Assembly (NCBI GenBank): GCA_027442615.1
Contig: DAIBBI010000026.1
Location: 1-24,000 of the forward strand
Direction of reading: 5' to 3'
Length of the DNA: 24,000 bases
Source of the DNA: Ferrovaceae bacterium
GTDB lineage: Bacteria; Pseudomonadota; Gammaproteobacteria; Burkholderiales; Ferrovaceae
In this document: positions 17,229 to 23,094 of the stretch, in pieces
Position numbering within the stretch: position 1 is the stretch's first letter
Layout of the letters: each line of letters begins with the position of its first letter
Notes under the pieces: generated by a model
Seen by the model: the letters and a program-made list of their open reading frames with translations, nothing else
What the model was told of the DNA's origin: nothing
Database searches by the model: none
Program-made: the position numbers and the translations under genes

Positions 17229-17301
17229 GGGGGACAGACCTCCGTCATAGGGGACAGACCCCGAACCGGGGTCTGTCCCCTATGACGGAGGTCTGTCCCC
17301 C
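17229..17301. repeat. Palindromic element A: 35-bp arms and a 3-nt loop, with 4 copies of the GGGGACAGACC unit
   Basis: GGGGGACAGACCTCCGTCATAGGGGACAGACCCCG-AAC-CGGGGTCTGTCCCCTATGACGGAGGTCTGTCCCCC. I checked the arms by hand and 35/35 are complementary. Confidence 0.95.
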
Positions 17302-18061
17302 ATTGCTGGAGGCTGCAGGCATCGGCAAGCGCTTCGGCGGGCTGCGCGCTTTGAGCGGGGTGTCGCTACGCCTTGCCCCCGGCTCCATCACCGGATTGAT
17401 AGGCCCCAACGGGGCTGGCAAGACCACCTTTTTCAATGTGCTGACCGGAATCTACAGTCCTGATGAGGGCACGTTGCAATTTGACGGGCAGGCGCTGCCG
17501 GCAGGGCGGCCGCACGCCGTCGCGGCACGCGGCATTGCGCGCACGTTTCAGAACATTCGCCTGTTTGCCAACATGAGCGTCGTGGAAAACGTCATGGTGG
17601 GGCGGCATGTGCGCACCCACTCCGGCGTGTTGGGTGCCCTGCTGCATACGGCCGCGATGCGTCGCGAGGAAGCGGCCATTGCCGCGCGGGCCCGTGAACT
17701 GCTGGACTATGTGGGCATTGGTGCGCAGGCCGGCCGCATTGCCAGCACCCTGTCCTATGGCGATCAGCGACGCCTGGAGATTGCCCGGGCACTGGCCACG
17801 GACCCGCGCCTGCTGGCGCTGGACGAGCCTGCGGCTGGCATGAATGCCAGCGAGCGCGCACGGCTGGGCGACCTCATCCGGCGGATTCGTGCGGATGGCA
17901 CGGCGGTGCTGTTGATCGAGCACGACGTCAAATGGGTCATGCAGCTGTGCGACCGGGTTTCGGTACTGGATTACGGTGAATGCATAGCTGAAGGTACGCC
18001 GCAAGAAGTGCAGCGCAACCCCAAGGTGGTTGAAGCTTACCTCGGCATGGGGGCCACGTGA
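17282..18061 (+). CDS. livG: Branched-chain amino acid ABC transporter ATP-binding protein
   Basis: Walker A GPNGAGKTT, signature LSYGDQRRLEIARAL, Walker B LLALDEPAAG. The start is uncertain. ATG 17282 lies inside the right arm of palindrome A. An in-frame TTG at 17303 has GGAGGT 11 nt upstream. Confidence 0.88.
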   Translation: MTEVCPPLLEAAGIGKRFGGLRALSGVSLRLAPGSITGLIGPNGAGKTTFFNVLTGIYSPDEGTLQFDGQALPAGRPHAVAARGIARTFQNIRLFANMSVVENVMVGRHVRTHSGVLGALLHTAAMRREEAAIAARARELLDYVGIGAQAGRIASTLSYGDQRRLEIARALATDPRLLALDEPAAGMNASERARLGDLIRRIRADGTAVLLIEHDVKWVMQLCDRVSVLDYGECIAEGTPQEVQRNPKVVEAYLGMGAT

Positions 18062-18771
18062 CGGCGTTGCTGCAGGTCCAGGGGCTCGGTGTGCATTATG
18101 GCGGCATCGAGGCGGTGGCGAATCTTGACCTTGAAGTACGGCAGGGCGAGCGGGTGACGCTCATTGGCGCCAACGGTGCGGGAAAGAGCAGCACGCTCAA
18201 GGCGCTTGCCGGACTGGTGGCGCTTAGCGCCGGTTCAGTTCGATATGATGGCACCGATATGGCCGCGTTGCCCGCCTGGCAGCGGGTGGGGCGGGGCTTG
18301 TGCCTGGTGCCTGAAGGACGCGGCGTGTTCAGCCGCCTGACCATCGAGGAAAACCTCTTGATGGGCGCCTACCACCGTGGCAGGGTGCCGCAACTTTCGC
18401 GGGAGCTCGATCGCGTCTACGGGCTGTTGACGCGCTTGCACGAGCGTCGCCACCAAGCTGCGGGCACGCTTTCCGGGGGCGAGCAGCAGATGCTGGCGAT
18501 CGGGCGGGCGCTGATGGCCAAGCCGCGCCTGTTGATGCTGGATGAACCCAGCATGGGGCTGGCCCCCTTGATGGTGGAAAAGGTTTTTGAGGTGATCCGC
18601 AACATTGCGGCAGAGGGCGTGACGCTGTTGCTGGTGGAGCAAAATGCCCGCCTTGCACTGGAGGTCTGCGACCGCGCTTATGTCATGGAGTCGGGGCGCA
18701 TCGTGCTGACTGACAGTGCGGCCCGGTGCCTCGACAACCCATTGGTGCGGGCGGCGTATCTGGGGGAATAA
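18058..18771 (+). CDS. livF: Branched-chain amino acid ABC transporter ATP-binding protein
   Basis: The GTG start overlaps the livG TGA. Walker A GANGAGKSS, signature LSGGEQQMLAIGRAL, Walker B LLMLDEPSMGL. Confidence 0.9.
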   Translation: MTALLQVQGLGVHYGGIEAVANLDLEVRQGERVTLIGANGAGKSSTLKALAGLVALSAGSVRYDGTDMAALPAWQRVGRGLCLVPEGRGVFSRLTIEENLLMGAYHRGRVPQLSRELDRVYGLLTRLHERRHQAAGTLSGGEQQMLAIGRALMAKPRLLMLDEPSMGLAPLMVEKVFEVIRNIAAEGVTLLLVEQNARLALEVCDRAYVMESGRIVLTDSAARCLDNPLVRAAYLGE

Positions 18772-18782
18772 GGGGGCGGGAA

Positions 18783-18871
18783 AAGGAAAAAAGGGGACAG
18801 AAAAAAGGGGACAGACCTCATTTTCGATGAAAATGAGGTCTGTCCCCTTTTTTCTGTCCCCTTTTTTCCTT
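18783..18871. repeat. Palindromic element B: 43-bp arms and a 3-nt loop
   Basis: AAGGAAAAAAGGGGACAGAAAAAAGGGGACAGACCTCATTTTC-GAT-GAAAATGAGGTCTGTCCCCTTTTTTCTGTCCCCTTTTTTCCTT. 43/43 positions are complementary. It holds 2 full units and 2 truncated units (GGGGACAG). Confidence 0.95.
18801..18853. terminator. Probable bidirectional intrinsic terminator between convergent livF and the substrate-binding protein gene
   Basis: The inner hairpin at 18807-18847 has a GC-rich stem base. It is flanked by A6 (18801-18806) and T6 (18848-18853), so either strand reads as stem plus U-tract. Confidence 0.7.
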
Positions 18872-18873
18872 CG

Positions 18874-21274: not shown

Positions 21275-21302
21275 GGGTGCATTGCCTTAGGATAAAATGG
21301 AC

Positions 21303-21312
21303 GATTATACCG
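21303..21312 (-). promoter_or_regulatory. Candidate -10 element (CGGTATAATC on the minus strand) upstream of lgt
   Basis: A perfect TATAAT (reverse complement of attata at 21304-21309) lies 30 nt upstream of the lgt ATG. The 10-mer is identical to the one upstream of dusB. No convincing -35 was found. Confidence 0.3.
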
Positions 21313-21336
21313 ACCCAATGTTGCAGGAGATTTCCC

Positions 21337-23013
21337 ATGGCAGATAACCGCCGCAGCCGGACCATCACCGAAGGCGTTCAACGCTCGCCCAATCGCGCCA
21401 TGCTGCGCGCCGTGGGGTTTGGGGATGGAGACTTCAACAAGCCCATCGTGGGCATCGCCAATGGCCATAGCACCATCACGCCGTGCAATGCCGGGCTGGG
21501 CGAACTGTCCGCACGCGCCGAGATTGCGCTGCATGATGCCGGGGCCATGCCGCAAACCTTTGGCACCATCACCGTCTCCGACGGCATTTCCATGGGCACC
21601 CAGGGCATGAAGTATTCGCTGGTGTCGCGCGAGGTGATTGCCGATGCCATCGAGACGGCCACCAGCGCCCAGAGCATGGATGGCGTGCTGGTGGTGGGCG
21701 GCTGCGACAAAAACATGCCCGGCGGCATGATCGCCATTGCGCGCATGAACATTCCGGCCATCTACGTTTATGGCGGTACCATCAAGCCCGGCCACTACCA
21801 CGGCCAGGACCTGACGGTGGTGAGCCCGTTCGAGGCCGTGGGCCAATTCACGGCAGGCAAGATGTCGGAAACCGATTTCATCGAGATCGAGAAGCGTGCC
21901 TGCCCCGGCAAGGGGTCCTGTGGCGGCATGTACACCGCCAACACCATGTCCTCGGCCATCGAGGTGATGGGCATGGCACTGCCTTATTCATCCACCCAGG
22001 CTGCCGAGGACGAGGAGAAGGCGGTAAGTGCGGAAGAGAGCGCGCGCACCCTGGTGCAGGCCATCCACAATCAGCTGCTGCCGCGCCAGATCATGACCCG
22101 CAAGGCCTTCGAGAACGCCATTGCCGTCACCATGGCGGTGGGCGGTTCCACCAATGCGGTGCTGCATCTGCTGGCCATCGCCCACGCCGCCGAAGTGCCG
22201 CTGCGCCTGGAGGATTTTGAGGAGATTCGCGGCAGGATTCCGGTGCTGTGCGATCTCAAGCCTTCGGGCCGCTATGTGGCCACCGACCTGCATCGTGTGG
22301 GCGGCATCCCGCAGGTGATGAAAATGTTGCTCACGCGCGGCCTGCTGCACGGCGAGTGCATGACCATTACGGGCAAGACCGTGGCAGAAAACCTGAAGGA
22401 TGTTCCGGCCGATCCCGCCAGGGATCAGGAGGTCATTCGCCAGTGGGACAACCCCGTGTATGCGCAGGGTCACCTGGCCATCCTCAAGGGCAACCTCGCC
22501 ACCGAAGGGGCCGTGGCCAAGATCACGGGGGTCAAGAACCCGCAGATCACGGGCCCCGCGCGCGTGTTCGATTCTGAAGAGGCGGCCATGGATGCCATCC
22601 TCAAGGGTCAGATCCGGGCTGGCGACATTCTGGTCATCCGCTTTGAAGGACCTAAGGGGGGGCCTGGCATGCGCGAAATGCTCTCGCCCACCTCGGCCAT
22701 CATTGGCGCCGGATTGGGCGACTCCGTGGGACTGATCACGGATGGGCGTTTTTCCGGCGGAACCTACGGCATGGTGGTGGGCCATGTGGCCCCCGAAGCC
22801 TATGTGGGGGGCACCATTGCCCTGGTGCATGAAGGGGACGCCATCACCATCGACGCGCCGGCGCGCCTGTTGCAGCTCAATATTTCCGACGATGAGCTGG
22901 CCCGCCGGCGCGCCGCCTGGAAGCAGCCCGCACCGCGTGTTTCGCGCGGCGTCCTGGCCAAATACCTGAAGCTGGTAAGCACCGCCAGCCGGGGTGCCGT
23001 GACGGACGAGTAG
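21337..23013 (+). CDS. ilvD: Dihydroxy-acid dehydratase
   Basis: The start at [28 protein letters not shown] (ATG at 21337) has AGGAGA upstream. Motifs: GGCDKNMPG and [11 protein letters not shown]. Confidence 0.95.
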
Positions 23014-23023
23014 TCGCAAAAAG

Positions 23024-23094
23024 GGGGACAGACCTCAAAAGAAAGGGACAGACCCCAATTTGGGGTCTGTCCCTTTCTTTTGAGGTCTGTCCCC
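23024..23094. repeat. Palindromic element D: 35-bp arms around a single central T, with 4 unit copies
   Basis: GGGGACAGACCTCAAAAGAAAGGGACAGACCCCAA-T-TTGGGGTCTGTCCCTTTCTTTTGAGGTCTGTCCCC. 35/35 positions are complementary. Confidence 0.95.
23037..23081. terminator. Probable bidirectional intrinsic terminator between convergent ilvD and the porin gene
   Basis: The inner hairpin at 23045-23073 is flanked by AAAAGAAA (23037-23044) and TTTCTTTT (23074-23081). Confidence 0.6.

Follow-up and report, generated by a model that had tools for sequence, protein, structure and literature searches.

Genes that resemble RAYT transposase genes but are flanked by terminal inverted repeats (TIRs), not by sequences of the repetitive extragenic palindromic (REP) kind, were described in 2013 by Di Nocera as TIRtrons with TIRYT transposases; their TIRs share the motif GGGGWSAS, and in some genomes "moderately abundant" TIR families are found as dimers and clusters (PMC3733652). 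In the classification of Quentin (2018) the TIRYTs form subclass 2.1 of the TnpA_Y1 transposases, with the TIR consensus GGGG[AT][CG]A[CG] and a C-terminal extension with a helix-turn-helix (HTH) domain (Bac_DnaA_C, HTH_23 or HTH_28), and 291 of the 292 RAYTs of Bertels group 1 map to this subclass (PMC6006769). RAYT group 1 is the most widely distributed of the groups, being present in 21 classes including Clostridia, and the 16-mers flanking its genes are scarce, at about 12 per replicon (Bertels 2017; PMC5581495). The present work concerns a family of nested palindromes, built on the 10-mer GGGACAGACC, in a stretch of 24,000 nucleotides from a Ferrovaceae bacterium (contig DAIBBI010000026.1, positions 1 to 24,000; referred to here as the window). 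These palindromes are probably dispersed TIR repeats, of REP/REPIN type, that belong to a TIRYT, a domesticated IS200-like tyrosine transposase of the Y1 (HUH) type (TnpA_Y1 subclass 2.1, RAYT group 1), and the family is a new, unusually fast-changing example of a described kind of system.

The source of the window is an uncultured betaproteobacterium, and a 99.86% identical copy of the locus was found in the metagenome-assembled genome (MAG) GCA_027442595.1 and in ENA assemblies. The nearest IlvD of a named genus is that of Ferrovum (85%), those of Nitrosomonas, Nitrosospira and Gallionella being at about 78%. The 10-mer or its complement is present in 15 exact copies in the 24 kb, 12 of them in four loci (A to D) and three as single copies in genes. 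When one mismatch was allowed, 21 matches were obtained, whereas dinucleotide shuffles of the sequence averaged 1.69 and never exceeded 5; the family is thus genuine and not a product of chance, as the initial annotation of this DNA had maintained. All 12 full copies were recovered at the loci given there, as were both truncated copies, which lie in element B. The four elements are as follows.

Element A, 17224..17306, no strand: an outer GGGGACAGACCTC and an inner GGGGACAGACCCC unit, separated by a 7-nt spacer and mirrored about a 3-nt centre; exact copies at 17231 and 17251 (+) and at 17270 and 17290 (-).
Element B, 18783..18871, no strand: perfect palindrome with 43-nt arms that are 100% complementary, made of one full and one truncated unit pair; exact copies at 18808 (+) and 18837 (-), truncated copies GGGGACAGA at 18793-18801 and TCTGTCCCC at 18853-18861.
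Element C, 20377..20456, no strand: inverted units GGGGGACAGACCCCC (20377-20391) and GAGGTCTGTCCCC (20437-20449) around a 50-nt non-palindromic spacer; exact copies at 20379 (+) and 20439 (-).
Element D, 23024..23094, no strand: nested palindrome on the same plan as A, with 35-nt arms that are 100% complementary; exact copies at 23025 and 23045 (+) and at 23064 and 23084 (-).

The description of these loci as intergenic perfect palindromes requires some correction. Perfect arms are found in B and D and nearly perfect ones in A, where the 40-nt arms (17224-17263 and 17267-17306) are 98% complementary, but the spacer of C is not complementary; nor is A fully intergenic, since the called livG start codon, ATG 17282, lies within its right arm. 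The architecture claimed for both A and D, with outer GGGGACAGACCTC, a spacer and inner GGG(G)ACAGACCCC, was found as described. It belongs to a plan that recurs in the window and in a related locus, L230 (loci from other assemblies are denoted by L and a number), in which an outer GGGGACAGACCTC pair surrounds an inner mini-doublet GGGGACAGACCCC-n5-7-GGGGTCTGTCCCC and the outer arms differ at every site. All copies in the window and L230 have in common only GGGGACAGACC(T/C)C, the spacers being different; the stretch conserved between copies in this lineage amounts to 10-14 nt, and each copy is still a near-perfect and often nested palindrome. The two inverted units of the window palindromes form a hairpin, as do those of a REPIN: the predicted folding energy as single-stranded DNA is -51.8 kcal/mol for A (z = -16.6), -51.5 kcal/mol for B and -44.6 kcal/mol for D, with z-scores for these three between -13 and -17. 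The fold of element C is weak (-13.9 kcal/mol, z about -3), and a terminator scan flagged only a 5-bp unit hairpin in it.

The link to a transposase came from other genomes. An inverted-pair scan of one genome per species gave at least 117 loci from many phyla, and 41 further copies, independent of the search pattern, are present in the 836 kb of matched loci. The flanks of the inverted pairs are variable yet complementary; in 126 doublets the inner flanks are complementary to 80% on average, and a mean of 4.9 out of 8 positions agree between the outer flanks, compared with 2 by chance. Units that were placed in the same orientation share the logo AAAAnnG-GGGACAGACC-CnnTTT. All-versus-all clustering of the open reading frames in the motif loci revealed a single recurrent gene, exactly in those loci that have the most extra copies, namely L017 (Clostridia), L068 (Desulfobacterium), L106 (Betaproteobacteria) and L113 (Spirochaetota), and in each of the four the gene is bracketed by the 10-mer, in plus orientation upstream and in minus orientation downstream. 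The encoded protein matches Pfam Y1_Tnp (PF01797) with E-values of 1e-12 to 1e-17, and among the NCBIfam models it scores best with that for REP-associated tyrosine transposases, REP_Tyr_transpos (63-82 bits; cut-off 80). Residues H60, H62, Y120 and N124 are invariant in the alignment (NHVHLL and YIELNP), corresponding to the HUH and Y---NP motifs. The profile of the family matches TnpA_REP of E. coli (4ER8, E 1e-7) ahead of the TnpA proteins of ISDra2 and IS608; a PDB search with a single transposase sequence returned noise only. The proteins comprise 228-263 residues, as against 121 in the core domain, and therefore have a C-terminal extension; in an AlphaFold model (mean pLDDT 53) helices are placed at 167-213 with low confidence.

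The association was also seen when the motif was left out of the search. Metagenomes searched with the Y1 alignment yielded 80 loci with proteins 48-65% identical to that of L106. Of the 14 homologues that are at least 58% identical, 12 have the exact 10-mer beside the gene, 8 of them on both sides; upstream copies (+) lie at -55 to -143 and downstream copies (-) at +20 to +86. These loci, together with L017, L068, L106 and L113, supply in related genomes the RAYT gene flanked by the units for which the initial annotation had suggested searching. More distant Y1 homologues are accompanied by inverted repeats with the related cores GGGGTCAGAGCC, GGGGTCAGACTCGA, GGGGACGGAGCCC and GGGGTCGGTGACAA. 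GGGGWSAS upstream in plus orientation together with its reverse complement downstream was found in 32 of 68 loci, compared with 1 of 68 in the control with reversed orientation, and the consensus of the repeats adjoining Y1 genes is aAAtcG-GGGACAGACC-ACGnTTtc. Three more Y1 loci (L234-L236) show the same bracketing by inverted units. The same 10-mer is common to proteins with an identity of only 30%. The family is large, with 7,959 clusters at E <= 1e-40, most of them on short contigs, as would be expected if the flanking repeats break assemblies. In some of the other genomes (e.g. L017 and L068) an imperfect palindrome of 20-40 nt is conserved between copies.

Several features of the transposase loci and their units were recorded in addition. 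The Y1 gene of L068 (3239-3922) consists of three frame-shifted pieces, and in L106 a partial Y1 duplicate of 53 residues (5320-5478; 90% identical) lies upstream of the intact gene. A BrnT/BrnA toxin-antitoxin pair is situated upstream of Y1 in L235 (5173-5695) and L236 (211-733), at a distance of about 300 bp in both, and in L241 (8472-8976), at about 1 kb. Loci L049, L107, L113 and L117, from MAGs of Spirochaetales or Spirochaetota, carry a distinct subfamily with a non-palindromic spacer of 21 nt between the inverted units, e.g. tgtattctattttggaatcag, and in L113 such pairs flank the Y1 gene. The 5' flank of the unit (8-10 nt) is often tandemly duplicated together with a partial unit, as in aataataGGGGACAg, gaataataGGGGACAt and agaataatagGGGACAGACC; this pattern, which resembles a stutter at a fixed break point, was observed in L150, L151, L156, L158, L170, L212, L234 and L235 and also at 18783-18806 of the window. 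One might speculate that the truncated units and the stutters ending in GGGGACA(G) hint at cleavage or slippage at that point.

Comparison with the TIRtron/TIRYT families supports the class assignment. The core GGGGACAG fits GGGGWSAS exactly, and all units of the window contain it apart from the inner pair of D (aGGGACAG). As in those families, a Y1 HUH gene in low copy number has inverted copies of the repeat at similar distances on both sides, the repeats are dispersed as monomers, dimers and clusters, and the hosts are diverse, with Proteobacteria and Clostridia among them. The exact sequence and the lineage, in contrast, are undescribed in the published families, the hairpins are long, perfect and nested, no HTH domain is detectable, and the local density is high: 15 copies in the 24 kb of the window, and 16 units in 17 kb of L230 (plus a GGGGTCAGACC pair), versus about 12 per replicon. 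The nested hairpin form, the changes between strains and the in-frame copies in coding sequence, both presented below, are not described for the class in the cited TIRYT literature. The initial annotation had seen a resemblance to REP and BIME (bacterial interspersed mosaic element) palindromes, which is right in so far as the units are REP-like and flank a Y1 gene in other genomes, but they are not of the classical GT[AG]G type. Its remark that the sequence was not recognised as a described family likewise stands for the exact sequence, for which the searchable literature gave only eukaryotic primers and similar matches, and not for the kind, which is catalogued under GGGGWSAS (PMC3733652, PMC6006769).

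In Enterobacteria and Pseudomonas, the classical REP/BIME and REPIN-RAYT systems (RAYT groups 2 and 3, TnpA_REP of E. coli among them) share with the present family the extragenic palindromes in inverted doublets, the related single-copy Y1 transposase flanked by repeats and the location at gene 3' ends and in convergent gaps. They differ in the GT[AG]G tag, which is found in all the REPs of Nunvar 2010 (Table 1; PMC2817692), none of them like the GGGACAGACC unit, and which is not seen 0-2 nt 5' of the hairpin foot in either the unit logo or the TIR consensus. Moreover, the copies here have only 10-14 nt in common instead of 20-40 nt, their arms are perfect and not imperfect, and the core, instead of being specific to a species, is common to several phyla. 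The pairs that serve as terminators in Neisseria, made of the DNA uptake sequence (DUS), are similar in that a short conserved core stands at gene ends in inverted pairs, around palindromic spacers of arbitrary sequence, and in some single copies in coding sequence; unlike the DUS, the present motif extends beyond one family, is tied to a transposase gene and has no known link to competence.

The elements differ even between strains. Among strains 99.86% identical to the window, the loop of element B (18826-18828) is GAT in one and, by inversion, ATC in others, and in L001 an 8-bp insertion, GAAAAAAG, is present in one arm of this element (at 18799). Element D of L002 has lost G 23041 together with the paired C 23077, whereas in L003 the right arm of D alone is changed, representing a one-arm intermediate. 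By a rough estimate from the strain comparison, the change per base in the palindromes is about seven times that in the surrounding 12 kb. These differences show that changes pass from one arm of a palindrome to the other, for which template switching or repair within the hairpin is a likely cause.

Turnover of whole sites is evident in more distant relatives. In L230 (IlvD 97% identical) different palindromes occupy sites A and B. Site A is empty in L232 and L233 (IlvD 90% and 89%), where the livM and livG genes either overlap or leave a gap of 9 nt, the latter gene beginning with ATGACGGCACTGCTGGA. In the window the right arm of A contains ATGACGG followed by a 12-nt unit, giving MT[EVCP]PLLE where L233 has MTALLE, and the left arm contains an inverted copy (tccgtcat) of this livG start. 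At site C the pair is complete in L230, while L231 and L232 have an exact left unit and a decayed variant of the right unit (GGGGTCTGCCCCC); this makes element C the oldest of the four. In L233 a variant core, GTGGTCAGACCAC, is present at sites B (after livF) and D (after ilvD), 7500-7540 and 11733-11800, and elsewhere, with 17 copies in 21.7 kb. In relatives at about 90% IlvD identity, the 10-mer is either missing or replaced by another core.

Element A lies in the liv operon between livM and livG, beginning 6 nt past the livM stop (gene calls mapped from L001), and in the transcript of these two genes it would fold into a stable hairpin; an alternative livG start, TTG 17303, is preceded by GGAGG (17288-17292), which is derived from the outer unit. 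Element B is located between the convergent livF (stop 18771) and a gene for a periplasmic binding protein (stop 18874), with T-runs after the stems and a positive terminator score on both strands. Element C separates two minus-strand genes, lgt, which it follows, and a cytochrome c gene, to which it lies upstream. Element D begins 11 nt past the ilvD stop (23013), convergent with a porin-like gene, and its inner hairpin is followed by TTTCTTTT. B and D look like bidirectional terminators between convergent genes.

The units are not confined to such positions, nor are they always arranged in inverted pairs as had been claimed, since three exact copies stand singly in the approximately 22 kb of coding sequence. 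Outside the elements, ten-mers of the same composition occur 0.076 times on average, and the three observed were not attained in any of 3000 permutations. These copies, and a larger coding palindrome beside the window in L237, are the following.

polA unit, 12940..12952 (exact 10-mer 12942-12951), minus strand: single 13-nt GGGGACAGACCTC in the variable linker between the exonuclease domains.
purH unit, 8420..8429, plus strand: no indel; a conserved G-L-S is encoded by GGT CTG TCC, and this choice of codons gives rise to the unit.
CcoG-like ferredoxin gene unit, 72..81, minus strand: encodes part of FCGWVCPQ.
Four-unit nested palindrome, 6671-6735 of L237 (same lineage), about 3.3 kb left of the window start: in frame in a fused major facilitator superfamily (MFS)/spermidine synthase gene.

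The polA unit coincides with an indel, the window PolA having PLGTDLGPV where that of L232 has PANT---PA, with the extra residues exactly there. In the CcoG-like gene, which in L237 has Pfam matches to Fer4_5 and Fer4_18, the copy is probably imposed by the protein sequence. The MFS/spermidine synthase palindrome encodes GDRPHFGDRPREGVCPQNEVCPQN in a loop between transmembrane helices; homologues at 84-88% have at least one unit or its decayed remnants, the frame varying among them, and among more distant homologues unit-like peptides were found only in P0248 (78%) and P0252 (70%). In-frame units in the LivG N-terminus, the PolA linker and the MFS/spermidine synthase loop recall the Rickettsia palindromic elements and the intragenic REPs. 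The latter are often in genes for replication and repair (Di Nocera 2013; PMC3733652), to which polA also belongs; the Rickettsia elements differ in their length of about 100-150 bp, a CGTC tag and the lack of a known dedicated transposase.

These observations can be accommodated by a mechanism in which the core GGGGACAGACC(Y)C, of 10-13 nt and conforming to GGGGWSAS, would most likely be recognised or cleaved by the transposase on single-stranded hairpin DNA at replication forks, as the biochemistry of IS608 and of E. coli TnpA_REP suggests by analogy. Encoded by a single-copy gene at another place in the genome, the transposase would act in trans to copy or move the units, and a TIRYT of the window's own genome may, by the same analogy, bind, cleave and mobilise them. 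Inverted pairs of units would act as hairpins after insertion, and slippage and template switching in the hairpin may copy changes from arm to arm, so that the palindromes are kept while the copies diverge. The host would tolerate, and probably use, elements wherever a strong hairpin is harmless or useful, i.e. as terminators, as mRNA hairpins and in permissive protein loops.

Several points weigh against assigning the palindromes to a TIRYT. Searches by tblastn with Y1/RAYT sequences detected no homologue in the window, as the initial annotation had noted, or in L001-L003 and L230-L233 (about 50 kb sampled). In a 3.1-Mb genome with a close Y1 homologue, 20 kb contain no more than one exact copy, and dispersal is therefore not general to the clade. 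No HTH domain was found by Pfam in the C-terminal extension even at E <= 10, no REP-like hairpins were found beside the subclass 2.1 genes by Quentin 2018 (PMC6006769), and no biochemical test of a TIRYT is reported in the TIRYT literature (PMC3733652, PMC6006769, PMC5581495). Only 10-14 nt are kept between copies, whereas the whole doublet would be kept in a simple copy-and-paste REPIN population. It is conceivable, though rather unlikely, that the propagating entity is the core of 12-13 nt itself and not the whole REPIN, being planted in intergenic DNA and also, with the reading frame kept, in permissive protein loops, and that the long, perfect, nested palindromes are built on the spot as adjacent sequence is copied from a hairpin template. 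The inverted ancestral livG start ATGACGG in the left arm of A, the one-arm intermediates and arm-symmetric end states between strains, and the frequent stutter of the 5' flank beside partial units point in this direction; if true, this would show a de novo origin of REP-like palindromes around a Y1 recognition site.

Explanations that do without such a transposase are less probable still. The hairpins might be intrinsic terminators or mRNA stabilisers selected by the host, evolved in place around a favoured GC clamp and owing nothing to a mobile element. The bidirectional terminator score of B, the convergent genes around B and D with TTTCTTTT after the inner hairpin of D, and the A-run upstream and T-run downstream in the unit logo all agree with this, and any stem brings its own complement nearby, as illustrated by composition-matched control cores with 7 and 6 inverted pairs in viral contigs compared with 16 for the real core. 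It is nevertheless improbable, because the same 10-13-mer occurs in every element and inside genes, A is part of the liv operon and lacks a T-run, Y1 genes across phyla are bordered by the core in fixed orientation, and close relatives have empty or remodelled sites; terminating transcripts is more likely to be a secondary role of the hairpins than their source. A signal for DNA uptake, like the DUS of Neisseria or the uptake signal sequence (USS) of Pasteurellaceae, enriched by biased uptake and recombination, would fit the shortness of the core, the inverted pairs at gene ends, whose palindromic spacers are arbitrary, and the excess of single coding copies (three versus 0.076 expected), one of which is due purely to codon choice. 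Here the distribution of the motif over many phyla instead of one family and its fixed orientation around Y1 genes make the case very weak, all the more since some 17 kb of the window hold only the three single copies, far from the one per kb or so of DUS and USS, and relatives at about 90% IlvD identity have no motif or another core.

The least probable of all, and scarcely credible, is that the elements are miniature inverted-repeat transposable elements (MITEs) left by a conventional insertion sequence of the DDE type, in which terminal inverted repeats go together with a target-site duplication: their inverted-repeat units and, broadly, their length of 70-90 bp would suit, but no direct repeats flank any of A-D, in accordance with the initial annotation, the interior is not conserved between copies, and the only gene recurrently tied to the motif encodes a Y1 HUH transposase and not a DDE enzyme. 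A described RNA family was rejected as well, since Rfam gave no family for the elements at the gathering score and, at permissive thresholds, matched only generic models of long-hairpin microRNA precursors. A phage origin was rejected for want of enrichment, 7 of the 16 pairs in viral contigs coming from one phage lineage, and a covarying functional RNA or protein-binding hairpin common to the phyla was set aside because stems bring their own complement, as the controls showed, and the link to the transposase explains the core. The phage contigs L121, L122, L124, L126, L127, L128 and L132 are related, with several gene families in common, and carry one inverted pair of the 10-mer each, which is probably an ordinary terminator hairpin.

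The TIRYTs (subclass 2.1, RAYT group 1) are the most widespread clade of RAYT-like proteins and are among the least understood, and published work on them mentions TIR families just as "moderately abundant" and from a few genomes, and reports no hairpins adjoining the genes. The lineage described here offers a dense, hairpin-forming and visibly changing population of repeats on the GGGGWSAS core. In practical terms, the repeats would explain the short contigs on which the transposase genes are found, and they affect the calling of the livG start and the annotation of protein loops. Natural intermediates are at hand in the form of an inverted loop, one-arm and symmetric changes, empty, filled and remodelled sites and in-frame coding insertions, and these make the lineage a useful system for studying how such enzymes generate and maintain palindromic repeats.

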